From: Aliidiomarina minuta
GTDB lineage: Bacteria; Pseudomonadota; Gammaproteobacteria; Enterobacterales; Alteromonadaceae
Reading direction: 5' to 3'
DNA length: 24,000 bases
Assembly (NCBI RefSeq): GCF_003987145.1
Contig: NZ_PIPL01000004.1
Span: 120,503 to 144,502, forward strand
A model generated the notes under the pieces. That model was not told the origin of the DNA. It searched no databases and worked only from the letters and a program-made list of their open reading frames with translations. The first letter of the stretch is position 1; every line of letters begins with the position of its first letter. Made by a program: the position numbers and the translations under genes. Of the stretch, positions 707 to 20,158 are shown one piece after another.

Positions 707-1321
707 TTATTGCGGAAAATTTTGTAGTGTCAGCTCTGCAACTTCTTTTAACTGTTCCGAAGAAGCGCCGTTGGTGGCTTGAATAGCCATTCCCTGAACC
801 ACAGTACCGAGGTAGCGGGATAATACTTTGGCATCCACATCGGCTGGCAGGTCACCTTCTTTTTGAGCTTGAAGAAAACGATTATGCAGGGCTTCCCCGC
901 CTTCACAACGCAGTTCAATCAATGCTTTTTTAACTGAGTCGGACTCTTCGCTACAGGAAAGGGCGCCCTGAACGATGACACAGCCCTGAGGGTGGTCGCT
1001 ATCAGCCATGCTGCAGGCGGCACCATATAATATACGTTCTGCAACTTCATAAGCTGTGGGCTGTTTCAGGGCTGAGTAGAAAAAGGCTCCAGGACGTTCT
1101 TCATAGAGTTTTATAGCTTTTAGAAAAAGCGCTTCTTTGTTACCAAAAGTGGCATATAAGCTGGGTTTATTGATGCCCATCGCCTGGGTCAAATCAGCCA
1201 TAGAGGTGCCTTCGTAACCTTTACGCCAAAAGACATCCAATGCCTGCTCCAATGCGTTATCCACATCAAAAGCGCGGGGGCGGCCGACAGAAATACGACA
1301 CTTCTTTTTGCAAACCGACAT
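707..1321 (-). CDS. TetR/AcrR family transcriptional repressor, divergent from the RND efflux operon
   Basis: 204 aa. N-terminal helix-turn-helix region GRPRAFDVDNALEQALDVFWRKGYEGTSMADLTQAMGINKPSLYATFGNKEALF is a classic TetR_N signature. Position is divergent to an efflux operon. Confidence 0.9.
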   Translation of the reverse strand: MSVCKKKCRISVGRPRAFDVDNALEQALDVFWRKGYEGTSMADLTQAMGINKPSLYATFGNKEALFLKAIKLYEERPGAFFYSALKQPTAYEVAERILYGAACSMADSDHPQGCVIVQGALSCSEESDSVKKALIELRCEGGEALHNRFLQAQKEGDLPADVDAKVLSRYLGTVVQGMAIQATNGASSEQLKEVAELTLQNFPQ

Positions 1322-1389
1322 ATAAATGCTCCTGGAAAATACTCTGTTACATTTTAAGGAGTCGATGGTGGTTTGTCCATCAAAGTTGC

Positions 1390-1410
1390 TTACCGACTAG
1401 TACATAATGC
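1390..1410. promoter_or_regulatory. Operator-like repeat, copy 3 (TTACCGACTAGTACATAATGC), proximal to the TetR gene
   Basis: Shares TTACCG-N3-(A/G)GTACA-AAT with the two copies at 1501 and 1551. Its TACC-N5-GTA inverted core is imperfect. Confidence 0.35.
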
Positions 1411-1500
1411 TTACTTATAGCCTGTTCCTGGAGTGTTTGCACGACTTCGCGGATAGTTGATTTGCTTTTGTGTATCGGCTTACTGCATCATAGACATTAA

Positions 1501-1522
1501 TTACCACTTGGTACAAAATTAT
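1501..1522. promoter_or_regulatory. Operator-like repeat, copy 1 (TTACCACTTGGTACAAAATTAT), abutting the -35 element
   Basis: Near-identical to 1551..1572, exactly 50 nt away. Contains the inverted core TACC-N4-GGTA. Confidence 0.45.
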
Positions 1523-1523
1523 C

Positions 1524-1551
1524 TTGACAGTCTCTTTGTGTCGTATATATT
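1524..1551 (+). promoter_or_regulatory. Putative sigma70 promoter of the RND efflux operon
   Basis: TTGACA at 1524..1529, a 16-nt spacer, then TATATT at 1546..1551. It lies about 70 nt upstream of the adaptor gene's ATG (1621), which has a TAAGGA Shine-Dalgarno sequence at 1609..1614. Confidence 0.4.
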
Positions 1552-1572
1552 TACCGTTTGGTACAAAATTAA
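1551..1572. promoter_or_regulatory. Operator-like repeat, copy 2 (TTACCGTTTGGTACAAAATTAA), abutting the -10 element
   Basis: Direct repeat of 1501..1522 with the inverted core TACC-N4-GGTA. Its position immediately downstream of the -10 fits repression by steric blockade. Confidence 0.45.
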
Positions 1573-1620
1573 TCGGCAGGTGTTCACGTTAAAACGGTGG
1601 GCACACATTAAGGACTTGTC

Positions 1621-2877
1621 ATGGGTAAACACAATTTGGTTATAAAATTTTTAACTGCGGGCGTCGCTGCGCTGATAATGACGGCATGTGGCAGTCCACA
1701 GATGGAGGCGTCAACAGAGCAACCGCTGCCTCAGGTTAAGGTTGCTTCAGTGATTCATGAGCGGGTGACCGAGTGGGATGAATTCACTGGGCGCTTGCAG
1801 GCTCCTGAGACGGTAACTCTGGTACCACGGGTTTCTGGTTATATTCAACGGCGGCATTTTGTGGAAGGTGCGCTAGTCAGTAAAGGCGATTTACTTCTGG
1901 AGATTGACGCAGCGCCTTTTGCAGCAGAAGTCGCCCGCATCAGCGCTGAACTGGAAAGCGCGCAAAGTGCCAGCAAACTTGCGCAGAATGAATACCAAAG
2001 AGCGGAAAGCCTGCGTGCGCAACGAGCGGTGTCTGATGAAATTCTGGAAACTCGTCTGGCACAAAAACAACAGGCTCAGGCCAGGGTTGCTGCTACGCAA
2101 GCGGCCTTGCAACGAGCTGAGCTGGATCTGAGTTATACCCGAATTAAGGCTCCTATGGATGGCCGCATATCCTATGCACAGGTGACCGCTGGCAACTACG
2201 TAACGGCGGGACAGACACTGCTTACCAGCCTGGTTTCCACGCAAAAAATGCATGCCTACTTTGATATTGATGAACACAGCTACCTGAAATACGCTCAGCT
2301 TGCCTCGCAAGGCAAACGCGCTGATACCCGCAGTGAGCAGCAGCATAGCAATCCCGTGTTTATGGCGTTGATGACGGATACTGATTATCACCATCTGGGG
2401 CGTATCGACTTTGTTGATAACAGAGTCAACCAACAAACCGGCACCATACGCCTGCGTGCGGTTTTTGAAAATGATGACGATCTGCTGTTACCTGGGCTTT
2501 TTGCCCGCATTAAGCTGGCTGGCAGTGCTTCCCGTGAGGCGATATTAATTGATGATAAAGCGATAGGCACCGATCTCAGCAATAAATTTGTATTCGTGTT
2601 GAATGGCGACAATGAACTGGAATACCGCAGGGTGACTTTGGGCAATAAAGTCGGTGGGCTGCGCATTATTGATGAGGGATTGGAGGCAGGCGATGCCATT
2701 GTGGTCAATGGCCTGCAACGGGTTCAGCCAAATATGATGGTGCAGCCGGACTGGAACGAGATGGCCACTGAGCAACAGTTAGATGGTCTGCGCATGACGC
2801 AGGAATTATTAGACACTGGCAGCCGCAGACTTACTGCCCGGATTGAATATGACAACGCATATTCAGCAGATCGTTAA
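1621..2877 (+). CDS. RND efflux periplasmic adaptor subunit (membrane fusion protein, lipoprotein)
   Basis: 418 aa. Lipobox LIMTAC|G near the N-terminus. Coiled-coil hairpin region (AELESAQSA...QAALQRAELDLSYTRIKAPMDGRI) and a beta-barrel/MP domain typical of the AcrA/MexA family. Confidence 0.9.
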   Translation: MGKHNLVIKFLTAGVAALIMTACGSPQMEASTEQPLPQVKVASVIHERVTEWDEFTGRLQAPETVTLVPRVSGYIQRRHFVEGALVSKGDLLLEIDAAPFAAEVARISAELESAQSASKLAQNEYQRAESLRAQRAVSDEILETRLAQKQQAQARVAATQAALQRAELDLSYTRIKAPMDGRISYAQVTAGNYVTAGQTLLTSLVSTQKMHAYFDIDEHSYLKYAQLASQGKRADTRSEQQHSNPVFMALMTDTDYHHLGRIDFVDNRVNQQTGTIRLRAVFENDDDLLLPGLFARIKLAGSASREAILIDDKAIGTDLSNKFVFVLNGDNELEYRRVTLGNKVGGLRIIDEGLEAGDAIVVNGLQRVQPNMMVQPDWNEMATEQQLDGLRMTQELLDTGSRRLTARIEYDNAYSADR

Positions 2878-2889
2878 TAGGGGCCTTGT

Positions 2890-5800
2890 ATGTTTTCTCA
2901 GTTTTTCATTACCCGGCCTATTTTCGCTGCGGTTATCTCACTTATTTTCTTTATAACGGGCGCTATCGCAGTCTGGCAGTTGCCTATTACCGAATATCCG
3001 GATGTAGTGCCACCCACGGTGGTGGTGACCGCAAATTATCCTGGGGCTAACCCTCGGGTCATTGCAGAAACAGTAGCTTCTCCGTTGGAGCAGGCTATTA
3101 ACGGTGTGGAAGACATGTTGTACATGTCTTCTCAGGCGACTTCAGATGGGCGCATGACGTTAACGGTTACTTTTGCCATAGGCACTGATGTGGATCGTGC
3201 GCAGAATGAGGTGCAAAGCCGGGTCGACAGGGCAACACCCCGTCTGCCGGAAGAAGTGCAGCGGCTGGGTATTATTACGCAAAAGTCGTCACCGGATTTG
3301 ACGATGGTGGTGCATTTAACATCGCCCGATGATCGCTATGACATGCTCTACCTGTCGAATTATGCTGCTTTGAATGTGAAAGATGAATTGTCCCGTATTG
3401 AGGGCGTGGGCAATGTTGAGCTCTTTGGTGCAGGTGAATACAGCTTACGTGTGTGGCTTGATCCTAATCGTATGGCGGCTTTAAATTTGTCGACCCAGCA
3501 GGTGATTGCCGCCATTCGTGAGCAAAACCAACAGGCCGCGGCCGGCAGTTTAGGTGCGCAGCCGAGTGGCTCTGCAGACTTTCAGCTGCTGATTAATGTC
3601 AAAGGTCGCCTGGAGACAGTAGAAGAGTTTGAAGACATTATTATTGATGTTGGCCCGGCAGGTGAAATCAGCCGCCTGAAAGATGTTGCCCGCATTGAAC
3701 TGGGCGCTTCTACCTATGCTTTACGCTCTTTGCTGGATAATAAAGAAGCCGTGGCCATGCCGATTTTCCAAGCTTCAGGTTCTAACGCTATTCAGATTTC
3801 TAATGATGTGCGTGCACGGATGGGTGAGTTGTCAGAAGATTTTCCGGCGGGGCTGGATTACTCCATTGTATATGACCCTACGGTCTTTGTGCGGGGGTCG
3901 ATAGAAGCGGTTATTAAAACCTTGTTGGAAGCCGTCCTACTGGTAGTGCTGGTTGTGGTGTTATTTCTGCAGACCTGGCGTGCTTCTATTATTCCTCTGG
4001 TTGCGGTGCCCGTTTCTCTGGTTGGCACTTTCGCCATCATGCACTTACTGGGTTTTTCGTTAAACGCGCTATCGTTATTTGGTTTGGTGCTCGCTATTGG
4101 TATCGTGGTGGATGATGCCATTGTGGTGGTTGAAAACGTGGAGCGTAATATTCGGGAAGGGCTGGCGCCCGTTGCGGCCACTCGTAAAGCCATGAAAGAA
4201 GTAACAGGCCCTATAGTGGCGACTACCTTAGTGCTGGCCGCGGTGTTTATTCCAACCGCTTTTATGAGTGGGTTAACCGGCCAGTTTTATAAACAGTTTG
4301 CATTGACTATCACTATCGCCACCTTCATTTCAGCCATCAATTCTTTGACCTTAAGTCCGGCGTTGTCGGCATTGTTACTGAAAAGCCCTGATGCGAAAAA
4401 AGACTGGCTGACACGAGCTCTCGACCGGGTATTCGGCCGCTGGTTGTTTGCGCCTTTTAATCGCTTTTTTAGTAGTTTATCAAATGGCTATGGCTGGCTG
4501 GTGAAAAAAGTCATTCGTTTTGGTGTTGTGGTGGGTGTGCTTTATGTGGCGCTGGTGGGTGTAGCCGGGCTGCAGTTAATATCAACACCGACCGGTTATG
4601 TGCCAGAACAGGATAAGCAGTACCTGATAGCTTTTGCACAGTTGCCGGATGCTTCTTCACTGGAGCGCACCGATGCTGTAATCCGGGAAATGTCAGAAAT
4701 TGCCCTGCAGCATCCTAGCGTTGAGACTTCTGTTGCTTTTCCAGGTTTGAGTATTAATGGCTTTACTAATAGCCCCAGCAGCGGCATTGTTTTTGTTGGT
4801 TTAAGTGACTTTGATCAGCGCACTGCGCCTGAATTGTCAGCCGCAGCCATTGCCGGTGAACTGAATGCTGCTTTTAGTGGCATTGATTCGGCATTTGTAG
4901 CTATTTTCCCACCGCCACCGGTGATGGGATTGGGCACCATTGGTGGATTCCGGCTGCAGTTGCAGGATCGCGCGAATCTCGGTTACGAAGAACTCTACCG
5001 GGTGACCTCTGAAGTGATACAAAAAGCCTGGGCAACTCCAGAGCTGGCAGGTGTTTTTTCCAGTTATCAGGTGAACGTGCCTCAGTTGGATCTGAATATT
5101 GACCGCACCAAAGCCAAACAGCAGGGAGTATCGCTGAACGAGATCTTTCAGACACTGCAGGCTTATATGGGCTCTGTGTATGTGAATGATTTTAATCAGT
5201 TTGGTCGTACCTATCAGGTCAATATCCAGGCGGACGAGCCCTTTAGGCAGGATCTGAATCAGATACGTCAGATGAGAGTGCAAAACCAATGGGGAGATAT
5301 GGTGCCGCTGGGGTCTTTTATTGATATTCAGCACAGCACAGGCCCTGATCGGGTGATGCGTTATAACGGTTTCACCACCGCAGAGATTAACGGTGGGCCT
5401 GCACCAGGATTCAGTAGTGGTCAGGCGGAAGCGGCCATAGAGCGCATTTTGCTGGAGACGCTACCAAATGGTGTGACTTATGAGTGGACAGAACTGAGTT
5501 ATCAGCAAATTCTGGCAGGTAACGCTGGGCTACTTATTTACCCGCTGGTTATTTTGCTGGTCTTCATGGTACTGGCGGCTCAGTATGAGAGCCTTAGTTT
5601 GCCCCTGGCGATTATTCTGATTATTCCGATGACTTTATTGTCGGCGATGAGCGGCGTGCTCCTCTATGGCGGAGATAATAATATCTTCACTCAGATAGGC
5701 TTGATAGTGCTTGTTGGTTTAGCCACTAAGAACGCTATTTTGATCGTTGAATTTGCTAAAAGCCTGCAGGATCAGGGCATGCAGGTTATGGATGCGATTT

Positions 5801-6063
5801 TGCAGGCGACCCGGCTTCGTTTGCGGCCCATACTGATGACCTCCTTTGCCTTCATTATGGGGGTAGTGCCTATGGTGTTCTCCACAGGGGCAGGTGCAGA
5901 AATGCGCCAGGCCATTGGTGTGGCTGTGTTCTCGGGCATGATCGGGGTTACTGTTTTTGGCTTAATACTGACGCCATTGTTCTATTACATGCTGGCAGTC
6001 CGGGCGGATAAAAAGCCTGAAGCTGAGCAGGGTACTTTGTTACAGGAGAAGCCGCATGCGTAA
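2890..6063 (+). CDS. RND multidrug efflux permease (HAE1 family, AcrB/MexB-like)
   Basis: 1057 aa. Starts MFSQFFITRPIFAAVISL...ITEYPDVVPPTVVVTANYPGA. Has 12-TM architecture with two large periplasmic loops and the conserved GIVVDDAIVVVENVER segment. Confidence 0.95.
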   Translation: MFSQFFITRPIFAAVISLIFFITGAIAVWQLPITEYPDVVPPTVVVTANYPGANPRVIAETVASPLEQAINGVEDMLYMSSQATSDGRMTLTVTFAIGTDVDRAQNEVQSRVDRATPRLPEEVQRLGIITQKSSPDLTMVVHLTSPDDRYDMLYLSNYAALNVKDELSRIEGVGNVELFGAGEYSLRVWLDPNRMAALNLSTQQVIAAIREQNQQAAAGSLGAQPSGSADFQLLINVKGRLETVEEFEDIIIDVGPAGEISRLKDVARIELGASTYALRSLLDNKEAVAMPIFQASGSNAIQISNDVRARMGELSEDFPAGLDYSIVYDPTVFVRGSIEAVIKTLLEAVLLVVLVVVLFLQTWRASIIPLVAVPVSLVGTFAIMHLLGFSLNALSLFGLVLAIGIVVDDAIVVVENVERNIREGLAPVAATRKAMKEVTGPIVATTLVLAAVFIPTAFMSGLTGQFYKQFALTITIATFISAINSLTLSPALSALLLKSPDAKKDWLTRALDRVFGRWLFAPFNRFFSSLSNGYGWLVKKVIRFGVVVGVLYVALVGVAGLQLISTPTGYVPEQDKQYLIAFAQLPDASSLERTDAVIREMSEIALQHPSVETSVAFPGLSINGFTNSPSSGIVFVGLSDFDQRTAPELSAAAIAGELNAAFSGIDSAFVAIFPPPPVMGLGTIGGFRLQLQDRANLGYEELYRVTSEVIQKAWATPELAGVFSSYQVNVPQLDLNIDRTKAKQQGVSLNEIFQTLQAYMGSVYVNDFNQFGRTYQVNIQADEPFRQDLNQIRQMRVQNQWGDMVPLGSFIDIQHSTGPDRVMRYNGFTTAEINGGPAPGFSSGQAEAAIERILLETLPNGVTYEWTELSYQQILAGNAGLLIYPLVILLVFMVLAAQYESLSLPLAIILIIPMTLLSAMSGVLLYGGDNNIFTQIGLIVLVGLATKNAILIVEFAKSLQDQGMQVMDAILQATRLRLRPILMTSFAFIMGVVPMVFSTGAGAEMRQAIGVAVFSGMIGVTVFGLILTPLFYYMLAVRADKKPEAEQGTLLQEKPHA

Positions 6064-7432
6064 TTTTAAAGCCGCAGGGCTGCTATTTTCACTGCTGTCT
6101 TTAACTGCCTGTGCGACGGTTGGGCCTGACTATGCACAACCAGAGCAGGTTGCTGATATTGATTTCAGCAGTCCTTATGAACAGCCGCAGGACGTTTTAA
6201 AGTGGTGGCAGGCGTTTGCAGATCCCCACCTTGATGCATTAATAGATATCACCTTGCAGAACAATCGCACATTGGCCAGTGCAAGCGCCAATGTAGAGCG
6301 TGCCTATGCGGTTTTCACTGATGTGGATAACGACTTCATGCCCGATCTGGGTCTGGAAACCGGTTATCAGGCAAACCGTAATGCTCTTTTTGCAGGCGGA
6401 GATCAGGTACTACGCGGTTACCAGAGTGGGGCGCGTTTGAGCTGGGACCTGGATCTGACTGGCAAATTACGACGGGCAAGTGAAGCGGCGGCTGCACAGG
6501 CTGACTATGCAGAAATTCTGTGGCACGACGCGCAACTGCAACTAGTCAGTCAGGTAGCCACCAGTTACGGTGAATACCGCGGTGCCCAACTGCGCTTACT
6601 GGTAGCACAGGAGAACCTGCAAAACCTGCGTCAGAGTCAGGACATTATTATTGCCCGTTATGAAGCGGGCATGGCTTCTGAACTGGAAAAAGCTCGTTTT
6701 GCAGCCCAGGTACATGAAGTCGAAGCGCTGGTGCCTGATTTTGAACTGGCCTTGCTGACGGCTGAGCTCACCTTATCGGCACTGTCCGGTCAACGCCCTG
6801 AGCAACTTGAACTGGGTGAAGTTGCCATGCTTCCGGGGCTACAGGGGCCCGTGGCCATCGCAAATGGTGAGAACTATTTGCGCTATCGTGCGGATGTGGC
6901 CAGTGCCGAACGTTTGCTAGCGGCGCGTACCGCAGAAATTGGTGTTGTCACTGCAGACTTATACCCCAATTTATCGCTGAATGGTTTTCTGGGGTTTGCC
7001 TCCACTCCGGGCCTGTCTTTGGGCTCGGAGCAGCGCAGTTGGGCGGTAGCTCCTACGCTCAGCTGGCAGGTTGCGGAACTGAGTTCGGTGCGCAGCCGCA
7101 TACAGGCCGCTAATGCCAGTCAGCGCATGGCATTGGCTGAATTTGAGCAAAGTGTATTTGATGCGATTGCGGATATGCAGTTGTCGTTGCACAGTTATAA
7201 TCTCAGTCGCCAGCAACAGTTAGCTCTGGAACAGCAATGGAGTGCAGGCAATAATGCAGTGTCTCTGGCGCGAGCCCGTTATCAGGCAGGAGGTGCTGAG
7301 TTTCTGGAATTACTGGAGTCAGAACGGGAGCTGTTACGCAGCAGCGATCGCCTGGCTCAGGTGGAGCAGCAAAACTTCGCTCGCTTGATTGATATATATA
7401 GAAGCTTTGGTGGGGGCATCAAATTACTATGA
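6056..7432 (+). CDS. Efflux outer-membrane factor lipoprotein (NodT/OprM family)
   Basis: 458 aa. Lipobox LSLTAC|A followed by VGPDY. Duplicated OEP repeats. Its start overlaps the pump gene by 8 nt. Confidence 0.9.
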   Translation: MRNFKAAGLLFSLLSLTACATVGPDYAQPEQVADIDFSSPYEQPQDVLKWWQAFADPHLDALIDITLQNNRTLASASANVERAYAVFTDVDNDFMPDLGLETGYQANRNALFAGGDQVLRGYQSGARLSWDLDLTGKLRRASEAAAAQADYAEILWHDAQLQLVSQVATSYGEYRGAQLRLLVAQENLQNLRQSQDIIIARYEAGMASELEKARFAAQVHEVEALVPDFELALLTAELTLSALSGQRPEQLELGEVAMLPGLQGPVAIANGENYLRYRADVASAERLLAARTAEIGVVTADLYPNLSLNGFLGFASTPGLSLGSEQRSWAVAPTLSWQVAELSSVRSRIQAANASQRMALAEFEQSVFDAIADMQLSLHSYNLSRQQQLALEQQWSAGNNAVSLARARYQAGGAEFLELLESERELLRSSDRLAQVEQQNFARLIDIYRSFGGGIKLL

Positions 7433-7456: not shown

Positions 7457-8119
7457 CTATTGAATGTCAGCTTCGCGAGCATGCACCCGAATCGAACGAT
7501 AGGCGGCGGTAGCGGATGAGTTGCTGTTGTCGCAGTCGGTCATGATGGCGATGGCGTTTATTTTATCCGGGGCTTCGCCGTGAAAGTTGATGAAGTCTTC
7601 TTTCATGTCCCGGGTTTCGGTGTGCCATTCACCGTCTTCGGGAACTCCCTGACGTTGCGCTATCATGTGTGCCTGGCTGGCGAAGGGGTTGGGCCAGTCC
7701 TGGCCAACTGGGGTATGTTGGGTCCAGACGTAGTTCAGCGCGCGGGTGCGCCAGCGTAATATAGAGTGTTCGCGCAGCACATAAATACGGGCGGCGAAGT
7801 CGTCGCCGCGTTTTTGTTGTTCATCATCAGTGTCCGGAAATTGAGTGATGCGCCACTCCCAGCTGATCATGGGGGTCTCGTCTAAATCAATGTCACCACG
7901 GTAAAATAACCCTGAGGCCTGTCCGTCCTGGCACTGGGCTAGCACATGGGCTGGCTCGCGGTCACCGAACTGCTCATCAACCAATAGATATTGAGTGTGA
8001 CCTTCAAAAGAATGGGAGTCCCATTTTATGATGTCTTCGGCCTGCCAGTTCAGGCTGGCCTGCGCACTGCCAACAGCAGCAGCCATTGACAGTAATATCC
8101 AGTGATACGATTTTTTCAT
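7457..8119 (-). CDS. Secreted DUF3047 domain protein
   Basis: 220 aa with a signal peptide (MKKSYHWILLSMAAAVGSAQA). GDDFAARIYV, LNYVWT...PNPF and AIAIMTDCDNSNS blocks match my recollection of the DUF3047 consensus. Confidence 0.65.
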   Translation of the reverse strand: MKKSYHWILLSMAAAVGSAQASLNWQAEDIIKWDSHSFEGHTQYLLVDEQFGDREPAHVLAQCQDGQASGLFYRGDIDLDETPMISWEWRITQFPDTDDEQQKRGDDFAARIYVLREHSILRWRTRALNYVWTQHTPVGQDWPNPFASQAHMIAQRQGVPEDGEWHTETRDMKEDFINFHGEAPDKINAIAIMTDCDNSNSSATAAYRSIRVHAREADIQ

Positions 8120-8220: not shown

Positions 8221-8763
8221 TTATTTGAACTGCTCGTCGACAGGCGTTTGCGCCATGTAATTAGTGTAATTGCTCAGGGTTTTCTGGCCTATGACTAAAA
8301 TCACTTCGAGCACTTGCTGCTGCTTGTAGCCGGCGTCATAGAATTGTTTTACTGCGGACTCATCAACTTTGCCCTGTTGTTTAATCATGGCCTTGGTAAA
8401 CTGACGTAAGCCCTCGAGTTTGTCGTCCTCAAGTTTCTTATCATTCAGAATAGCCTGATTAAGCTCATCAGATACGCCCATTTGCTTGGCAATGGCGCTA
8501 TGCGCTGGCTGGCAATAATGACAGTTATTTACAACATTCACGGTTTGCCAGACCACGGTCAGTTCTTCTTTGTTGAGGCTGGTTTTATTGGCCAGATTAT
8601 CCAGCGTAAGATAAGCCTCGAGTAGCTGAGGCGCTTCGGCCATGACGCCATATAAATTAGGAATGAAGCCAGCGGCCTGTTCCGCTTTTTCCAGTAAGCC
8701 CTTGCTGCCTTGTGGGGCACTGTCTTTTGTGTGGATATTAAAATCAGTCATATTGTACTCCAT
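8221..8763 (-). CDS. Carboxymuconolactone decarboxylase (CMD)/AhpD-like family protein with a CxxC motif
   Basis: 180 aa. NCHYCQPAHS is the AhpD-like CxxC...H signature. An alternative start at 8751 (MTDFNIH) has a better GGAG Shine-Dalgarno sequence. The listed start is 2 nt after the upstream stop. Confidence 0.8.
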   Translation of the reverse strand: MEYNMTDFNIHTKDSAPQGSKGLLEKAEQAAGFIPNLYGVMAEAPQLLEAYLTLDNLANKTSLNKEELTVVWQTVNVVNNCHYCQPAHSAIAKQMGVSDELNQAILNDKKLEDDKLEGLRQFTKAMIKQQGKVDESAVKQFYDAGYKQQQVLEVILVIGQKTLSNYTNYMAQTPVDEQFK

Positions 8764-8765
8764 CG

Positions 8766-9653
8766 TTAAGTTAACTTTTGACGTAGTTGAGGGTTTATCT
8801 TGGCTACCGGCACGATAATGCTAAGTTCGTAAGCGTCGGCAAAGTCATCGTCCAACGCGGCATCGCCGAACCAGATATGTGACCCCAGCGATAAATACGA
8901 TTGTAAAATCCTGGGTATCTGGTTGCCGGTAGCGGCTAATTGCTGCTGCAAGTATTGAATACGGGGCCTGTCGTTAAGAGATGTGGCCGCTGTAAAATCA
9001 AGTCTTGCCTGGGTTTGATAGTTGAGACCGGGTTTGGCTGTCATCAACGGCTCAGGTGGTGCATACAGCTGCTGACAGAAGGTGATGATAATATCCAGGG
9101 CTTCTGGCCCGAGGCTTTTATATAAAGAAACATTACCGAAAAAGTAGTTGACCTCTTTTCGTTGTGCAAGCAAAGCATTTAACCCAGCCCAGAGTGCAAA
9201 AAATCCAAACCGGGCGGCACCTGCCTCATGGTTGACTACTGAGCGACCCAGCTCAATCGACTGTTTCAAAACACGACTACTAAAAAAGTCACTGTAGTCG
9301 AACAGCTGCGCCGTGCGTAACACCTCAATATTTGCCATCGCATCTCTGCCGGGCTTAAAACGATAGAGCGCAACTATCTGCAAACGATTAGGATCCCAGA
9401 CCACGAGCTGAAGATAACTGGCGGGACCAAAATCACGGGCATCGGTATCCCGGGTTAAATTTCGCCCCGCTCCGGCCTGGCGAAAAGTAGCCTCACGAAT
9501 GCGGCCCACTTCATTCATGGTTATGGGTGCCTCGTCGGCCTGCAGCACGTAGACCCGCAGGCCACGAAACTCAGTCAGCGCGCTGAACGAATCCAGTTCA
9601 CGCTGAAGGTCTTGGCTTTGCTCGGCGTGAGCAAGGGGGACGTCGAAAGTCAT
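8766..9653 (-). CDS. GNAT-fold N-acyltransferase of the OlsB/GlsB/OlsF-C-terminal type (aminolipid N-acyltransferase-like)
   Basis: 295 aa. The block IREATFRQAGAGRNLTRDTDARDFGPASYLQLVVWDPNRLQIVALYRF matches the remembered consensus of the Acetyltransf_5 aminolipid N-acyltransferase family. GAGG Shine-Dalgarno sequence 7 nt before the ATG at 9653. Confidence 0.7.
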   Translation of the reverse strand: MTFDVPLAHAEQSQDLQRELDSFSALTEFRGLRVYVLQADEAPITMNEVGRIREATFRQAGAGRNLTRDTDARDFGPASYLQLVVWDPNRLQIVALYRFKPGRDAMANIEVLRTAQLFDYSDFFSSRVLKQSIELGRSVVNHEAGAARFGFFALWAGLNALLAQRKEVNYFFGNVSLYKSLGPEALDIIITFCQQLYAPPEPLMTAKPGLNYQTQARLDFTAATSLNDRPRIQYLQQQLAATGNQIPRILQSYLSLGSHIWFGDAALDDDFADAYELSIIVPVAKINPQLRQKLT

Positions 9654-11217
9654 GGTTTACCTCGTTAAAATGTCGGGGCAAGGCGTAACTGCGTGCTTTG
9701 CACCATTGCATACGCTGTTGGTCGTTAACGCCACAGGCCTGCAGCTCAATGGGCTGCATCGGCACATCAATAAAAAACTGCGGTCGCCGGATATATGGTT
9801 TAAGGGTTTCGCGGGGCAACAGCAGCATTTCCAGGTTAAGCCTGATTCCCAGCAAATTACGCACTTTATGAATGCAGTAGAACAAAGATGAATTACGTGA
9901 CTGTATAAACATAGGCACTAACGAGCGTCGATAGCGTAGTGACAAGGTGGCTATGCTTTTTGCCCAGGCACCATCATCTAACTCTCCATGCACAGAATAG
10001 CGCGCGGTTTTACCCGCTGGAAAAACCAGTAAGGGAGCTTTACCGGCAAATGCCTGAGTAACGGCGGCTGTGGATGCTTTGCGCGCTTCAAATACAGAAA
10101 CAGGAACAATCAAGTCTTGTAAGTGACTTAAAGTCAGCAAAGCGTCATTGGCGATGACCCTGAGGTTAGGGTAGCGTTTTTGCAGCGCTGCGATTGCTAT
10201 TAAACCGTCCACGCCCCCGGTGGGGTGATTGCATACAAATACGAGGCGGGCATTAGCATCAGGCCATCTCATCGCTTGTAACTCAGGTTCCACGCCGAGC
10301 AATTGCAATGCCTTGTCTGCCACACGATCCGGCGGCACCGAATCCAGTTTTTGCAGTAATTTATTCAGCCTTTTTTCCGCAATCAACCAGCGTAAGGTCG
10401 CCCATTTTATAGGGCCGAAAGACTGAGCAAGCTGGGGCTGGTATGTGTCCAGAAGGGTCTTGCTGCTGACCCGAGAAACCCTGCTTACAGGTTGGCTGGA
10501 TGAGGCCAGTTTAACCATCAGATCTTCACCGGTTTCCCTGCTTAAGGCTTCAGGGTAGCCGGGCCAGTAGCACATGCTGCCAAAATGCTGGCCTATGGTT
10601 ATATGGGTCACACTGATCGTCTGAGTGGTTGCACGCCGCATGGCGATTCCAAACGCTGAGCCTAAAATGCCTCGGGAAGCGTGTAATTTTTTGAGAGCCT
10701 CAAGACCAGCATGAGCTGGTAATTTTAACCGTGCCCAGGTGCGTCGAAGCCAGGGCGTCCAGCGCGGAGCCAGGCTTGAACTTGAAACAGGAGAGCGGGG
10801 CGCCAGAATATGACGCAGTTGCTTCCCGTCCCAGTTGAACTGTACAGGCTCATGAAAACGGTCAAAAATAAGCAGGATAAAAGGGCGATATGTTGTCAGT
10901 GCCCTGGGTTCAAGACGAAGATTAATGGCGTCCCAGTTCGCACAGTGGGCAAGGTTTTTGATTAGCAGTCCCCGGCTTGTGCTAGCCGTCTGAGTCTGGG
11001 CCTGATGCTGGTAATTATTCAGCAGGCAAAATACAAATCCTTTATCATTAAAAGCGGTCCAGCTACCACCTCCCTGGGGATCAATCGGCATAGCGGCGCT
11101 TATACCCTGAGCTTTAAAAAGTTCTGGTCCGCTCGCCGATGCACGGCTGTTCTGCTCGTCGCGGTTGATCAGGACGTGCAGTTTATGAGCTTCAAAACAC
11201 CAGCTTATGGTGCACAT
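9598..11217 (-). CDS. Fusion protein: N-terminal NRDE/TANGO2-like domain plus C-terminal PlsC-like lysolipid O-acyltransferase domain
   Basis: 539 aa. The N-terminus MCTISW...VLINRDEQNSR...DPQGGGSW carries the eponymous NRDE motif and Cys2. The C-terminal half has VFVCNHPTGGVDG (acyltransferase block I variant) and LLVFPAGKTAR (block III-like). Confidence 0.75.
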   Translation of the reverse strand: MCTISWCFEAHKLHVLINRDEQNSRASASGPELFKAQGISAAMPIDPQGGGSWTAFNDKGFVFCLLNNYQHQAQTQTASTSRGLLIKNLAHCANWDAINLRLEPRALTTYRPFILLIFDRFHEPVQFNWDGKQLRHILAPRSPVSSSSLAPRWTPWLRRTWARLKLPAHAGLEALKKLHASRGILGSAFGIAMRRATTQTISVTHITIGQHFGSMCYWPGYPEALSRETGEDLMVKLASSSQPVSRVSRVSSKTLLDTYQPQLAQSFGPIKWATLRWLIAEKRLNKLLQKLDSVPPDRVADKALQLLGVEPELQAMRWPDANARLVFVCNHPTGGVDGLIAIAALQKRYPNLRVIANDALLTLSHLQDLIVPVSVFEARKASTAAVTQAFAGKAPLLVFPAGKTARYSVHGELDDGAWAKSIATLSLRYRRSLVPMFIQSRNSSLFYCIHKVRNLLGIRLNLEMLLLPRETLKPYIRRPQFFIDVPMQPIELQACGVNDQQRMQWCKARSYALPRHFNEVNHDFRRPPCSRRAKPRPSA

Positions 11218-11693
11218 TTTTGCTGGTACTCCAAAGTGGATGCATGCACACCGATGGAGGGCTCTGCCTCAACACCAAAGTCAGTCATGATGATGCGAAT
11301 GAGTGCCAGGTGGTGGATGGTATGACTGCATACAAAATCCAGTTCCCGGGCCAGGTTGGTGGCTAACCTTGTTGTTCCTGATTGATAGATCAAAGGGTGA
11401 GCATAGGGAGAATCAATGGCACCTAGTGTCTCTTGAATTTCATCAATCCGTGTTAATGCCGCCTGAGGCTGTGTTTCCAGAATGGGATCTCTTCTGCGTT
11501 CTGAATAATCAAGCAGTCCATTTTTAAGCGCCAATATGAGCTGAGAATAGTGTTCCAAAACATGTCGGCTGTGGCGGCCGATGCTTGCCTCCTGTGGTAG
11601 CTTTGAGGCGGCTGCATATTGACGGTCACCGAGCTCGGCAATCACATCTTTTAGTGCATTTAACTGAGCCAGATTGGTAGTTATTAGTTCCAT
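11205..11693 (-). CDS. DinB superfamily (DinB_2-like) metal-binding protein
   Basis: I chose the ATG at 11693 (MELITTNL), 1 nt after the upstream stop; the track ORF extends to 11744. The histidines in HSRHVLEHY and CSHTIHHL fit the DinB His triad on a four-helix-bundle-sized protein (162 aa). Confidence 0.7.
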   Translation of the reverse strand: MELITTNLAQLNALKDVIAELGDRQYAAASKLPQEASIGRHSRHVLEHYSQLILALKNGLLDYSERRRDPILETQPQAALTRIDEIQETLGAIDSPYAHPLIYQSGTTRLATNLARELDFVCSHTIHHLALIRIIMTDFGVEAEPSIGVHASTLEYQQKCAP

Positions 11694-11948: not shown

Positions 11949-12338
11949 TTATTTCATTATATTGCGTAGCGCACGGGTTAGTTTTTGCTGTCCTTCAGGG
12001 GTATCGAGATCGGTTTTTGAAAAATACAGGTAATTATTGTCGGCATCAGGCAAGAGTCTTCGAATTTGCGACTTTGCCTGGTCGTGGGTCAGCAGGCTGG
12101 CGAATACAAGGGGTAAATCAGGCGACGCTGCTCGCAGTTTATCAACGACTTCTTTTGCTGATAGTGGCAGTGCGGACTGCAAGGCTAACGAAACGACTGC
12201 GGCCCTGGCTGTTTTACCCAGGCGCTTAAGGTCGTCTTCATTTTCTGCCGCGGCATAGGTGAGCTGCGCGGCGGATAAAAAAGGTTTTACCTGGCTAACA
12301 ATGAAGGGATGCGGACGAGCTAAGAGTATATCTGGCAT
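11949..12338 (-). CDS. Hypothetical protein, first gene of the operon
   Basis: I chose the ATG at 12338 (MPDILLARPHPF), which has an AAGGA Shine-Dalgarno sequence 7 nt upstream; the track ORF starts at 12371. 129 aa with an alternating beta/alpha-looking pattern. No family recognised. Confidence 0.55.
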   Translation of the reverse strand: MPDILLARPHPFIVSQVKPFLSAAQLTYAAAENEDDLKRLGKTARAAVVSLALQSALPLSAKEVVDKLRAASPDLPLVFASLLTHDQAKSQIRRLLPDADNNYLYFSKTDLDTPEGQQKLTRALRNIMK

Positions 12339-12420
12339 TACTTTTTCCTTGTTAATGTATAGACTAGCCATATTCGTTAATAACTATCCGTTATCTTAGA
12401 TACTCGGAGTACTGATAACC

Positions 12421-13341
12421 ATGACCGAAACAACGGTGCAATCAACCAAAACAACGGAAGCTGTTGATAAGCTACTTGGCGAACTGGCATTTGGCTCGAG
12501 TTTGTATTTTGAATCGGGTTTCTGTAATAGCTGGAATATGCTTACTGAAAAGTCCGATAAGGCAGGGCTGCATCTGATCACTCAGGGCCATATCTGGTTT
12601 GCCATGCCGGGTCAGCTGGAAACTCAATTTAAAATGGAGGCGGGCGATGCGTTGTTCTTAAGCCATGGTTTCCGGCACTGGCTAAGCGATGAACGGGTGC
12701 AGGCTGAGCAGGCAGGAAGCGACATGACGCAGGTTTGTATTCCAGAGCACCTGGAGCAGGGGCTGGTTTGTTATGACGTAGATGTCAGGTCATCCTTAAC
12801 TAAAACTTTGTTTGAATTGATGCCGGATTATATTCATTTGCCGGCTAGTAAGCAGAGTGATCAGTTGGCGCAACTTATCGCCATAGTTCAGGATGAGGCG
12901 GCAAGGCAGCAGCCAGGTTACTCGGTAGCAGTCAGTCGGCTAAGTGATGTTATTGTGCTGCATTTAATTCGCCAGGTATTAACAGACGAGAGCATTGCCA
13001 GTGGTCTGCTTAATGCGTTGCGGGACGATGTGCTGAGGAAGGTATTGGTTGCCATGATGGGTGACCTGACTCAGGAATGGACGGTGGATGCCATGGCGGC
13101 AACCGCCTTTTTGTCACGAAGTGCCTTTGCCGAGCGCTGTCACAAAGTGCTAGGGATGTCACCGAAACATGTGATTGATACGCTGCGCCTGCAGCACGCC
13201 CGCCATTTACTGATTCATACCCAGGACACTATTGACAAGATAGCTGAGTCGGTCGGCTACCAGTCCGCAACAGCATTTATTCGCTTTTTTAAACAGCGCG
13301 CAGGATGCGCCCCGGGTGAGTATCGACAACTGCAGGCATAA
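12421..13341 (+). CDS. AraC family transcriptional regulator with an N-terminal cupin-type sensor domain
   Basis: 306 aa. The C-terminal double helix-turn-helix (WTVDAMAATAFLSRSAFAERCHKVLGMSPKHV...IDKIAESVGYQSATAFIRFFKQRAGCAPGEYR) is the AraC signature. The gene is divergent from the six-gene operon. Confidence 0.9.
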   Translation: MTETTVQSTKTTEAVDKLLGELAFGSSLYFESGFCNSWNMLTEKSDKAGLHLITQGHIWFAMPGQLETQFKMEAGDALFLSHGFRHWLSDERVQAEQAGSDMTQVCIPEHLEQGLVCYDVDVRSSLTKTLFELMPDYIHLPASKQSDQLAQLIAIVQDEAARQQPGYSVAVSRLSDVIVLHLIRQVLTDESIASGLLNALRDDVLRKVLVAMMGDLTQEWTVDAMAATAFLSRSAFAERCHKVLGMSPKHVIDTLRLQHARHLLIHTQDTIDKIAESVGYQSATAFIRFFKQRAGCAPGEYRQLQA

Positions 13342-13436: not shown

Positions 13437-13865
13437 ATGAAATATATTCTAAGTGCAATCGTTGGATTCTGTGTTGTTGCGGCAAGCGCAATTTGGTTTA
13501 GCACGGCATCTGCTTCTGATACCTACCTGAAAAACTTTAAGCATAGTTTTACCGAGAGCGCCTATGAACAGGCAAAAGAGGACAATAAGTTAGTACTTAT
13601 TGACGTCTATGCCACCTGGTGTCCTACCTGCCGTCGTCAGCAAGATGTGCTGAATGACTACTTTGCAGAGAACCCGGATAGTGAAGTGGTGGTGTTTGAG
13701 GTCGACTACGATGATCAGAAAGAGTGGGTCAGTTACTTTCAGGCACCGCGCCAGTCAACTCTGGCGTTGTATCGTGGTGACGAGCGACTTTGGTTTAGTG
13801 TGGCACAAACCAATAAAAGCGCTATTTTTGAGGCGTTAAACGAGCATGACGCAGGGGGTCAGTAA
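13437..13865 (+). CDS. Exported thioredoxin-fold protein (WCPTC active site)
   Basis: 142 aa. Signal peptide MKYILSAIVGFCVVAASAIWFSTASA. Active-site motif ATWCPTCRRQ. GGAG Shine-Dalgarno sequence upstream. Confidence 0.85.
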   Translation: MKYILSAIVGFCVVAASAIWFSTASASDTYLKNFKHSFTESAYEQAKEDNKLVLIDVYATWCPTCRRQQDVLNDYFAENPDSEVVVFEVDYDDQKEWVSYFQAPRQSTLALYRGDERLWFSVAQTNKSAIFEALNEHDAGGQ

Positions 13866-13867
13866 GC

Positions 13868-14569
13868 ATGGAGCTTACAGCTATTCCGCTGGCGCTCGTC
13901 GCGGGCGTGCTTAGCCTGCTGTCACCCTGTGTACTACCCATGGTGCCGGCAGTCACGGCTTCAGCCATGCGCGCATCACGTTCGGGGATATGGTTCTTAG
14001 GCTTAGGGCTGGCGCTTACTTTTGCTTTGGGCGGCTCGGTTTTAACTTATCTCTTTATGAGCATGGGAACGACCCCTGATGTGCTGCGTCATTTCGCTGC
14101 GGGGCTTATGCTGGTGATGGGCTTTGCCTTAGTGAACAGCCGTTTGAACATGTTGGTTTCTACTGGTTTGTCGCGCATGATTAGCTACTTGCCCAATGGC
14201 GGTAATATTCAGGCGGATTCGTCCCATCCGGCGTTTCAGTTTGTGATTGGCGGGTCGTTGGGTTTAATCTGGTTACCCTGTGTGGGTCCAACCTTAGGGG
14301 CTGCCATTGCGCTGGCATCGACCGGTGAGCATCTGACCATGTCTTTCTTAGTGATGCTTGCTTTTGGTATAGGTACGGCGGCACCTCTGATTGCTATTGG
14401 TTATTTTGCAGGGACTAAAATTCAGGCGTTGAGAAGCTCGGCCAAAGTGGGTCGCCTGGTATTAGGGTATGCTTTGCTGGTCATCGCTTTGATGATATTC
14501 ACAGGCTTTGACAAAGTACTTGAAACCATTGCTATCGAATATCTGCCGGACTGGGTTACCCGCATCTGA
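13868..14569 (+). CDS. CcdA/DsbD-type transmembrane thiol-disulfide electron transporter
   Basis: 233 aa polytopic membrane protein. Has LSPCVLPMVP and a second LPCVGP cysteine motif typical of CcdA. Starts 2 nt after the thioredoxin stop. Confidence 0.85.
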   Translation: MELTAIPLALVAGVLSLLSPCVLPMVPAVTASAMRASRSGIWFLGLGLALTFALGGSVLTYLFMSMGTTPDVLRHFAAGLMLVMGFALVNSRLNMLVSTGLSRMISYLPNGGNIQADSSHPAFQFVIGGSLGLIWLPCVGPTLGAAIALASTGEHLTMSFLVMLAFGIGTAAPLIAIGYFAGTKIQALRSSAKVGRLVLGYALLVIALMIFTGFDKVLETIAIEYLPDWVTRI

Positions 14570-20074: not shown

Positions 20075-20158
20075 AATAAACCTCGGTTATTGTTCTTTTA
20101 TAGTCAGTCTTTACGTATAGATGTACCATCATAGTTCATTTTGGGAAACGAAATAATT

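Follow-up and report, generated by a model that had tools for sequence, protein, structure and literature searches.

The gene that is the subject of this study lies in a 24,000-nucleotide stretch of the Aliidiomarina minuta genome (contig NZ_PIPL01000004.1, positions 120,503 to 144,502 of the forward strand; hereafter, the window), where it encodes a protein that joins an NRDE/TANGO2-type domain to a PlsC-like acyltransferase domain. The open reading frame (ORF) list presents the gene as a single unbroken frame of 539 codons with an ATG start on the minus strand (Table 1). Its product begins with MCTISWCFEAHKLHVLINRDE, in which cysteine is residue 2 and the NRDE tetrapeptide occupies residues 18-21, and a Ser/Arg-rich linker, ASSSQPVSRVSRVSSK (approximately residues 237-252), lies between the two domains. 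Two acyltransferase motifs follow, NHPTGGVDG at residues 330-338 and FPAGKTAR at residues 399-406. All of these features had been listed in a first-pass annotation of the DNA, which did not state the strand, and all were found in the translation.

The assignment of the two halves, proposed in that annotation from the motifs, was borne out by Pfam matches above the cut-offs. The TANGO2 profile (PF05742) matched residues 1-125 with 38.3 bits (cut-off 22.6, E 2.2e-9), the match spanning only positions 1-133 of the 257 in the profile. Acyltransf_2 (PF19576) matched residues 260-511 with 130.1 bits (cut-off 27), and Acyltransferase (PF01553) scored 30 bits against a cut-off of 23. In NCBIfam the second half scored best with GlsA (NF053697; 149.8 bits, equivalog cut-off 260) and with the N-terminal half of OlsF (NF052615; 113.5 bits, equivalog cut-off 620), in each case below the cut-off. 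The product of the gene directly downstream, a GNAT protein of the PF13444 family, matched GlsB with 169.8 bits (cut-off 300) and the C-terminal half of OlsF with 161.2 bits (cut-off 620), the counterparts of the two OlsF halves being separate genes here. The C-terminal domain of the fusion probably works in a GlsA-like manner, but the name GlsA is not warranted and, because the scores of both proteins are far below the cut-offs, they do not allow the head-group amino acid to be assigned.

Table 1. Coordinates of the fused gene, its parts and the neighboring genes in the window (AF2, AlphaFold2; pLDDT, predicted local distance difference test; Ntn, N-terminal nucleophile).
Feature	Position	Strand	Basis
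Whole fused ORF, NRDE/TANGO2 + linker + Acyltransf_2, 539 aa	9598..11217	minus	ORF list, Pfam, AF2, 34 homologous clusters
N-terminal NRDE/TANGO2-type Cys-Ntn domain, residues 1-236	10510..11217	minus	Pfam, Foldseek, phmmer
Cys2 codon TGC, presumed N-terminal nucleophile after Met1 removal	11212..11214	minus	Sequence, conservation
NRDE motif, residues 18-21	11155..11166	minus	Conservation, profile alignment to human NRDE 25-28
Ser/Arg-rich linker, residues 237-251	10465..10509	minus	Gapped and variable in fusion alignment; pLDDT falls locally to 76
C-terminal lyso-aminolipid O-acyltransferase domain (Acyltransf_2, GlsA/OlsF-N type), residues 252-523	9649..10464	minus	Pfam, NCBIfam, Foldseek 1k30
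Catalytic H-x5-D motif, H331...D337 in NHPTGGVDG	10207..10227	minus	Conservation in 31 fusion proteins
FPAGKTAR, second acyltransferase signature, residues 399-406	10000..10023	minus	Conservation
Disordered C-terminal tail, residues 524-539 + stop	9598..9648	minus	pLDDT < 50 for residues 523-539; inside 56-nt overlap with downstream gene
140-aa protein, no family match	11949-12371	minus	ORF list
NrtS-like membrane protein, 83 aa, NrtS 25.5 bits	11695-11946	minus	NCBIfam
DinB/YfiT-like four-helix-bundle metalloprotein, 162 aa from Met18 of listed ORF	11205..11693	minus	Weak Pfam, AF2, Foldseek
GlsB/OlsB-type amino-acid N-acyltransferase, predicted first aminolipid step, 295 aa	8766..9653	minus	PF13444 39.6 bits; NCBIfam
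CMD/AhpD-like (alkylhydroperoxidase-related) gene, last tightly packed operon gene	8221..8763	minus	PF02627, TIGR01926
Divergent AraC-type regulator (Cupin_6 + HTH_18), candidate operon regulator	12421..13341	plus	Pfam

Distribution and Authenticity of the Fusion

A homolog search showed this two-domain arrangement in 34 clusters of proteins, with identities of 28-91% across ~95-100% of the length; their NCBI name is "NRDE family protein". The fusion was present in 28 distinct loci from isolates, type strains among them, and metagenome-assembled genomes (MAGs) of the Gammaproteobacteria and Balneolales. In a scan of one genome per species, the isolates with the ORF were Alkalimonas amylolytica, A. 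delamerensis, A. mucilaginosa and A. collagenimarina; Arsukibacterium ikkense; Alishewanella agri, A. tabrizica and A. longhuensis; Salinispirillum marinum; and Aliidiomarina sp. B3213. The MAGs were from Idiomarina, Bacterioplanes, Rheinheimera, Saccharospirillum, Natronospirillum, Cyclonatronaceae, Balneolaceae and Balneolales.

The Met-Cys-Thr-x-x-Trp start and the [N/S]RDE motif were kept in 26 of the 28 distinct loci, in agreement with the importance that the first-pass annotation had attached to Cys2, and this cysteine is present in every full-length fusion of the alignment except the degenerate P0033. Across 31 fusion proteins, H331, P332, G334, G335, D337 and G338 of the first acyltransferase motif and G402, T404 and R406 of the second are invariant, with F399, P400 and A401 at least 90% conserved; in the N-terminal domain the same holds for R19, D20, E21, R25, N67 and S81-R82-G83 (at least 90%). 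The NRDE domain is N-terminal in every fusion. Mean pairwise identity was 38% for the N-terminal domain and 43% for the acyltransferase domain, and the two halves therefore appear to be conserved to a similar degree.

Four database entries (P0003, P0016, P0017 and P0020) begin at an internal methionine and so are without Cys2; the DNA of L004 (3845-5602) encodes MCTISW upstream of the annotated start. These apparent N-terminal truncations are start-calling errors, and automatic calling thereby hides the key residue of the family. Entries of this kind (P0003, P0016 and P0017) are also what could be cited for the view that the long ORF is an artifact in which a frameshift or misassembly has joined two genes. 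We rejected this explanation, to which we give practically no credence, since the starts of those entries are wrong, the same continuous ORF occurs in all 28 loci from independent isolates and MAGs of two phyla, and AlphaFold2 predicts one well-packed two-domain protein with a predicted template modeling score (pTM) of 0.89. The fusion is a genuine and conserved two-domain gene, in which an NRDE/TANGO2 domain precedes a PlsC-superfamily O-acyltransferase of the GlsA/OlsF-N type, and it is a novel architectural variant of already known families.

In a neighbor-joining tree of the N-terminal domains the fusions fell into nine separate pure clades, whose branching order was without resolution. 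The GC content of the window is uniform (0.44-0.54) and gave no compositional sign of recent transfer. Nearly all genomes with the fusion, or with the related acyltransferase and GlsB-like gene pair, are from what we take to be haloalkaliphile or soda-lake organisms (Alkalimonas, Arsukibacterium, Alishewanella, Natronospirillum, Salinispirillum, Cyclonatronaceae, Balneolales, Wenzhouxiangella and Alkalispirochaeta, loci L004-L043), and the names of the MAGs indicate soda-lake sediments and mats. This pattern suggests a habitat-linked spread across phyla and a role in the adaptation of membranes to alkaline or saline conditions.

Structure and Relatives of the NRDE Domain

The AlphaFold2 model, for which the fusion alignment was the input, had two confident domains (pLDDT 89.9) and a single disordered segment, residues 523-539. 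The N-terminal domain was modeled as an alpha-beta-beta-alpha structure with strands and helices in the expected order. When the model was compared with the PDB by Foldseek, the best matches were to human TANGO2 (9bwa and 8sv7, E 5e-10 to 2e-9, template modeling (TM) score for the target 0.56-0.60), followed by the bacterial NRDE protein CV2077 (3gvz, TM 0.68) and then, in order of E-value, by acyl-CoA:isopenicillin N acyltransferase (IAT), penicillin V acylase (PVA), acid ceramidase, bile-salt hydrolases (BSH) and NAAA. The Pfam score, the confident model and this succession of human TANGO2 and cysteine Ntn (Cys-Ntn) hydrolases among the structural matches support the earlier assignment of the N-terminal half to the NRDE/TANGO2 family. 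The second domain matched glycerol-3-phosphate acyltransferase (1k30).

A phmmer search with residues 1-240 identified 3131 representative proteins, most of them stand-alone proteins of 235-265 residues which aligned from residue 1 to ~225. Because this alignment runs from end to end, the N-terminal half of the fusion is a complete NRDE protein and not a fragment. Cys2 and R19-D20-E21 are invariant in 30 stand-alone relatives, and a profile built from these 30 matched human TANGO2 with an E-value of 3e-7. It was the only one of three queries to do so: a single-sequence search of the N-terminal domain against PDB sequences found nothing relevant, and a profile from the fusion alignment gave only spurious matches.

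In the profile alignment NRDE 18-21 corresponds to human NRDE 25-28 (R19 and D20 thus to R26 and D27), R25 to R32, N67 (in an LLN motif) to N75 and R82 (in an SRG motif) to R88. Of the human residues, R26, D27 and N75 have been proposed as catalytic, and R32 and R88 hold a sulfate in the crystal, where Met1 was not visible, leaving Cys2 at the N-terminus (PMC13044924). A conserved SSS stretch (~145-147) and R158 are candidate equivalents of human N157 and K166 by position alone, since the profile alignment ends at ~residue 124.

Human TANGO2 is the nearest structural match to the model, and the fusion shares with it, and with the NRDE family in general (PF05742; 8sv7, 9bwa and CV2077), the Met-Cys start, the NRDE motif and the alpha-beta-beta-alpha Ntn fold, as well as the equivalents of R32, N75 and R88. 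The two differ in that identity is only ~15%, with Pfam and profile alignments confined to the first half of the domain, and in that the C-terminal half of the fusion's domain has motifs of its own, the Ser-rich SSS stretch and an AMxR...TVS motif. Neither a fusion to an acyltransferase nor a pairing with a DinB-like protein, both of which are features of the window protein, has been described for eukaryotic TANGO2. The fold and the N-terminal position of Cys2 are confirmed by two crystallographic studies, in which palmitoyl-CoA, palmitoylethanolamide and ceramide were docked and no substrate was reported (PMC12359130; PMC13044924); fatty-acid derivatives have been put forward as substrates (PMC13044924).

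The Cys-Ntn amide enzymes (BSH and PVA, acid ceramidase, NAAA and IAT) have the same fold and N-terminal cysteine position as the fusion's domain, at ~10-13% identity. Their substrates are N-acyl amides of glycine or taurine, sphingosine and ethanolamine, which have the same bond as N-acyl amino-acid lipids, and IAT and BSH are also able to pass acyl groups on to amines (PMC13044924). The cysteine of the fusion directly follows the initiator methionine, as it does in BSH and PVA, with no propeptide or autoproteolysis.

The Operon and Its DinB-Like Gene

The genes on the minus strand abut or overlap one another in the order 140-aa protein, NrtS-like protein, DinB-like protein, fusion, PF13444 GNAT and CMD/AhpD-like protein. 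The 3' end of the DinB-like gene overlaps the start of the fusion by 13 nt, and the 3' end of the fusion overlaps the start of the GNAT gene by 56 nt (9598-9653), with comparable overlaps in relatives. The fusion had been placed by the first-pass annotation in an N-acyl amino-acid lipid operon, and the downstream gene, with its PF13444 domain and its best NCBIfam matches to GlsB and the C-terminal half of OlsF, agrees with this. In the window a PF13444 N-acyltransferase gene adjoins that of a PlsC-superfamily O-acyltransferase, as in operons of the OlsBA/GlsAB type, and co-transcription is predicted from the overlap. The acyltransferase and GlsB-like pair is conserved in ~38 loci, some without NRDE.

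By comparison with GlsA/GlsB, which make the glycine lipids of Bacteroidota, and with OlsF and OlsB/OlsA, the same two reactions would be expected here, N-acylation by the PF13444 enzyme and then O-acylation by the PlsC-type enzyme; adjacent genes and best NCBIfam matches are common to the window operon and the GlsA/GlsB and OlsF systems. A difference from OlsF is that the acyltransferase is there fused to the N-acyltransferase, whereas in the window it is fused to the NRDE domain and the N-acyltransferase is encoded by a separate, overlapping gene. Based on this homology, the GNAT and the fused acyltransferase would make an acyloxyacyl aminolipid. A literature search for the polar lipids of the host genera yielded no data.

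The module was scored on the retrieved loci with hidden Markov models built from the alignments of this analysis. The order DinB-like, fusion, GlsB-like was found in ~24 gammaproteobacterial loci and in Cyclonatronaceae, and a GlsB-like gene is downstream of the fusion in nearly all loci. A high-GC metagenome lineage (L171) has the same order, with an OlsC-like hydroxylase (2210-2974, 282 bits, cut-off 450) and a CMD gene as divergent neighbors.

The DinB-like protein of the window matched Pfam DinB/DinB_2 weakly (16.9 against a cut-off of 24.8), while its relatives pass PF12867. A word-indexed homolog search with it returned only five relatives, and an AlphaFold2 model from a 5-sequence alignment (pLDDT 91.1) was a four-helix bundle resembling DR0053, BH3987 and YfiT (6iz2, 2f22 and 1rxq, TM 0.6-0.77). 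H44, H124, H127 and H128 are invariant, and H44, H124 and H128 are at the usual metal-site positions. The fold and the histidine set are common to the DinB/YfiT superfamily (YfiT/BstA bacillithiol S-transferase, mycothiol S-transferase, DR0053 and ClbS), from whose members the window protein differs in its low identity (12-16%) and in conserved DYxxRxRD and RE...SHTxHH motifs of its own.

Most of the DinB-like proteins (loci L001-L170) end in Cys-Ala-(Pro/Arg/Gln), because the end of their gene overlaps the NRDE start, ATG-TGC-ACN, in an alternative frame (window 11205-11217). The retention of this stop/start overlap of ~13 nt across very divergent bacteria would imply tight translational coupling, and the DinB-like and NRDE proteins probably form a complex. 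The first-pass annotation had envisaged a three-activity machine for acylation and amide processing; the lipid operon on which this was based is real, but the proposal is incomplete in that it missed this fourth conserved partner, apparently coupled translationally from upstream.

Stand-Alone NRDE Genes Have Similar Neighbors

The closest stand-alone NRDE proteins (P0047-P0049) are each encoded directly downstream of a DinB-like gene. To sample such genes more widely, metagenomes were scanned with a hand-made degenerate DNA pattern (M-C-T-[LIV]-[ST]-W, 11 codons, then NRDE) and 120 returned loci were analyzed. The pattern was chosen without regard to neighbors, and it selects the MCTxSW-x11-NRDE subfamily only, so that the statistics cover that subfamily. 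The 120 loci formed 83 clusters at 70% identity with GC contents of 35-74%, and all but one encode a stand-alone protein of ~245 residues.

A DinB-like ORF was immediately upstream on the same strand, typically overlapping the NRDE start, in 74 of the 93 loci with at least 600 nt of upstream sequence. Aminolipid synthase genes were present in the retrieved stretch of 41 of the 120 loci; of the 21 loci whose flanks extend for at least 1.5 kb in both directions, 14 had them. The chance expectation is ~0.3 per 120 stretches, an estimate for which 1-2 PF13444 genes were assumed in each genome.

The synthase neighbors, confirmed by Pfam and NCBIfam, had three architectures. In the first, an OlsF-like bifunctional gene (437 bits) either leads a co-directional, overlapping series ahead of the DinB-like and then the NRDE gene (L075, L096 and L142) or is convergent. 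In the second, OlsB-like (145 bits) and OlsA-like (121 bits) genes precede DinB and NRDE. In the third (L114), NRDE is followed by Acyltransf_2 with overlapping stop and start codons, which is the unfused form of the window gene. The fusion is thus the covalent version of a widespread neighborhood in which a DinB-like and an NRDE gene lie beside OlsF-like, OlsB- plus OlsA-like, or Acyltransf_2 genes, and the genomic-context argument for a lipid or acyl role of the NRDE family, which the first-pass annotation had drawn from the fusion, is strengthened by these three arrangements.

A protein of ~850-1000 residues, encoded directly after NRDE in 39 of the 120 loci, combines Abhydrolase_1, VTT/DedA and an ATP-grasp-like C-terminus with weak matches to cyanophycin synthetase, Ddl, RimK and glutathione synthase (e.g., L118 7169-9872, L157 2775-5475 and L121 1389-4437); it is absent from the window operon. 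DoxX genes were in 13 of the 120.

We found no description in the literature of the fusion or of the NRDE/aminolipid/DinB neighborhood, none of the DinB-NRDE pairing, and no paper that treats TANGO2 together with DinB or with aminolipids; the leading papers returned for TANGO2 and aminolipid terms were without TANGO2. Searches within two aminolipid reviews, from 2024 and 2026, found no relevant mention of NRDE, Ntn or DinB partners.

Other Genes Around the Module

The 140-aa and NrtS-like genes are syntenic in 8-11 gammaproteobacterial fusion loci and the AraC-type regulator in 17 fusion loci, also in Alkalimonas (L001). In the stand-alone loci a small ORF upstream of DinB was considered as a counterpart of the NrtS-like gene and rejected, as it is not homologous to the window gene. 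The small proteins encoded just upstream of DinB-NRDE pairs (L046 1188-1508, L047 3409-3696 and L048 4053-4367), which are likewise not homologous to the NrtS-like protein, have a single hydrophobic segment and an extended Glu-Ala/Glu-Gly repeat tail, and DoxX and large tubulin-tyrosine-ligase-like (TTL) ATP-grasp genes are nearby. A scan for promoters in the window identified fewer promoter-like sites than in shuffles, and terminator-like matches in the window fell inside genes.

At the other end of the operon the CMD gene is packed 2 nt past the GlsB-like gene, and a DUF3047 protein (7457-8119), which has no counterpart in related loci, follows after a gap of 100 nt. A CMD gene also adjoins the module in Alishewanella (L014 and L016), L009, the spirochaete locus L033 and L171, and is an occasional partner. 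Thioredoxin and a CcdA/DsbD-type membrane protein are encoded just past the divergent AraC regulator (window 13437-14569), ~1 kb from the operon; thioredoxin is syntenic in 13 and CcdA/DsbD-like in 10 fusion loci, and thioredoxin precedes DinB in Cyclonatronaceae. We rejected the synteny of thioredoxin, CcdA and AraC as a functional link because it is confined to one clade and rare elsewhere (thioredoxin and CcdA, 1 of 120 loci near stand-alone NRDE).

These neighbors bear on a reading of the DinB-like/NRDE pair as a thiol- or redox-linked system, for instance in the repair or detoxification of oxidized or electrophile-modified lipids or in low-molecular-weight-thiol chemistry, and not as a remodeling amidase. 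The DinB/YfiT fold takes in bacillithiol and mycothiol S-transferases, a mycothiol-dependent isomerase, EgtB and OvsA, and AhpD/CMD-like genes recur by the module (in the window, L014, L016, L033, L171 and 6 metagenome loci), to which can be added the thioredoxin, CcdA/DsbD-like and DoxX genes described above. We nevertheless consider this reading improbable: the near absence of thioredoxin and CcdA beside stand-alone NRDE genes marks their synteny as lineage-specific, no thiol-biosynthesis genes were seen among the neighbors, and the chemistry of the Ntn superfamily is acyl transfer or hydrolysis, not redox.

The same CcdA/DsbD-type gene, whose family is linked to cytochrome c biogenesis, could with the thioredoxin gene be taken to indicate that the NRDE domain serves to bind or traffic heme and that its fusion to a lipid enzyme is incidental. 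The sole bacterial member of the family with experimental work, the stand-alone HtpA (SO0126) of Shewanella oneidensis, was assigned to heme trafficking by Han et al. (PMC10470608); heme is bound in vitro by HtpA as well as by human TANGO2, and overproduction of HtpA raises cytochrome c content (PMC10470608). In a term search of that paper the word "lipid" occurs once and "genomic context" never. In crystallographic work the interaction of heme with TANGO2 was nonspecific (PMC13044924), CcdA synteny is limited to one gammaproteobacterial clade, and the recurrent neighbors (DinB-like, aminolipid synthases, the alpha/beta-hydrolase-VTT-ATP-grasp protein and DoxX) include no heme synthesis, transport or Ccm genes, so that for the fusion we regard a heme role as very improbable.

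Farther from the operon, the window contains genes for a TetR regulator and for an entire RND efflux system of membrane-fusion protein, AcrB-type pump and outer-membrane factor (707-7432), with no evident link to the fusion; a fatty-acid-hydroxylase-family protein with a weak OlsE-like match (20141-20995, 86 bits against a cut-off of 475); and a 718-aa fusion of VTT/DedA with a pyridine-nucleotide-disulfide oxidoreductase (21005-23161), an architecture also seen near an NRDE gene in L110. In Alkalimonas amylolytica (L001, 306-2863) a bufferin-type cluster for ribosomally synthesized and post-translationally modified peptides (BufA1, MbnB/TglH, HvfC and DoxX) lies past the AraC regulator of the operon, and in L049 an MbnP and MauG-like pair precedes the stand-alone NRDE gene; copper-related genes are thus near NRDE in two loci.

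Proposed NRDE Domain Function

In the pathway that we propose, the GNAT would N-acylate an amino acid to form a lyso-lipid, whose hydroxyl would be esterified with a second fatty acid by the acyltransferase domain through a His331/Asp337 dyad. Removal of Met1 would leave Cys2, with its alpha-amine free, as the nucleophile; a cysteine at position 2 is compatible with methionine aminopeptidase. Cys2 would take a fatty-acyl group from an amide bond (or possibly from an ester or thioester) in lipids of this family to give an S-acyl enzyme. Through deacylation, or through exchange of the head group or of an acyl group, the NRDE domain would in this way edit or remodel the aminolipid, and, being tethered, could hand the lyso-lipid or acyl group to the acyltransferase for re-acylation. 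The DinB-like protein would be an obligate, probably 1:1, partner with a metal site.

With slightly better than even confidence, we infer that the NRDE half is an active acyl-amide or thioester transacylase or hydrolase which works through S-acyl-Cys2 and remodels aminolipids. We favor catalysis because the Met-Cys start has been retained, the domain is always N-terminal and the proposed active-site residues are conserved. Editing of aminolipids is favored because the nearest structural relatives cleave or transfer lipid N-acyl amides, the defining bond of aminolipids.

Several observations weigh against this interpretation. Two Balneolales loci have the fusion without an adjacent DinB or GlsB-like gene. 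A Natronospirillum MAG (L029, 3992-5482) has a decayed N-terminal domain (VDALTW..., SSRD) from which Cys2 and NRDE are gone, and in Natronospirillum operosum (L032, 3416-4903) the domain has been deleted, and an in-frame fusion joins DinB to the acyltransferase in a protein of 496 residues. Wenzhouxiangella (L030, 1688-3219) has DinB, acyltransferase and GlsB-like genes without NRDE, and soda-lake spirochaetes have only the acyltransferase and GlsB-like pair. Since lineages exist in which NRDE is missing or decayed, the domain is an accessory without which lipid synthesis can proceed. The L032 gene is a second, independent fusion, which ties the DinB-like protein to the acyltransferase, and from the gene arrangements the DinB-like protein would seem to be tied to the acyltransferase no less tightly than NRDE is. 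In addition, the human oxyanion-hole residues Asn157 and Lys166 are beyond the part of the domain that the profile and Pfam alignments cover; no activity or substrate has been reported for the NRDE/TANGO2 family (PMC13044924, PMC11867700, PMC12359130); and to join a synthase with a hydrolase of what it makes would seem futile, except for remodeling or editing.

The work of Lujan et al. points in another direction, to what we consider the main alternative, a non-enzymatic NRDE domain that binds acyl-CoA or an acyl chain and presents the donor to the fused O-acyltransferase, in line with a model for human TANGO2. Purified human TANGO2 binds C16:0- and C18:1-CoA, an NRDE-to-AGAA mutant does not, and the protein showed no lysophospholipid acyltransferase (LPLAT) activity, a further point that does not favor an active enzyme; loss of TANGO2 leads to the accumulation of lysophospholipids, as if LPLAT-type enzymes were starved of donor (PMC11867700). 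Such a chaperone would be predicted to become fused to an acyltransferase of this same superfamily, and the conservation of Arg25 and Arg82, whose human counterparts hold sulfate or phosphate in the crystal, fits a donor-binding pocket. We nonetheless find a chaperone rather unlikely. A binding pocket has no need of the strict N-terminal Met-Cys and the fixed N-terminal position of the domain, which suit a nucleophile; the conserved DinB-like metalloprotein is left unexplained; and OlsBA, OlsF and GlsAB work without such a module, which several lineages have dropped.

Returning to remodeling by S-acyl-Cys2, a broader proposal can be made, although tentatively, as we regard it as possible and well short of probable. 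NRDE and the DinB-like protein may constitute an unrecognized two-component enzyme system for acyloxyacyl aminolipids, in which cleavage or exchange of an acyl chain or of the amide-linked head group through S-acyl-Cys2 would be coupled to re-acylation in a manner resembling the Lands cycle, and eukaryotic TANGO2 may have kept this chemistry, with N-acyl lipid amides or acyl thioesters as substrates that supply lysolipid acyltransferases of the PlsC type. If true, this would explain the build-up of lysolipids in TANGO2 deficiency.

Significance

For aminolipid loci, the analysis adds two unrecognized accessory proteins, NRDE and DinB-like, and possibly a third, the alpha/beta-hydrolase-VTT-ATP-grasp protein; the fused form of NRDE appears to be tied to alkaline, saline habitats. 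For the TANGO2 family the implications reach to human disease. TANGO2 deficiency is severe, and the biochemical function of the protein is disputed, a heme chaperone, an acyl-CoA binder and a Cys-Ntn hydrolase all having been proposed. The fusion and the recurrent neighborhood are independent evolutionary evidence that ties the family to N-acyl-amide membrane lipids, a link that is of note because it is the N-acyl amide that the enzymes nearest in structure cleave. They also tie it to a PlsC-type lysolipid acyltransferase, which catalyzes the step that seems to be limiting in TANGO2-deficient cells. These findings name concrete candidate substrates for human TANGO2, and the small operon and its presence in culturable bacteria (Alkalimonas, Alishewanella and Arsukibacterium) make the function of TANGO2 testable by genetics and lipidomics.

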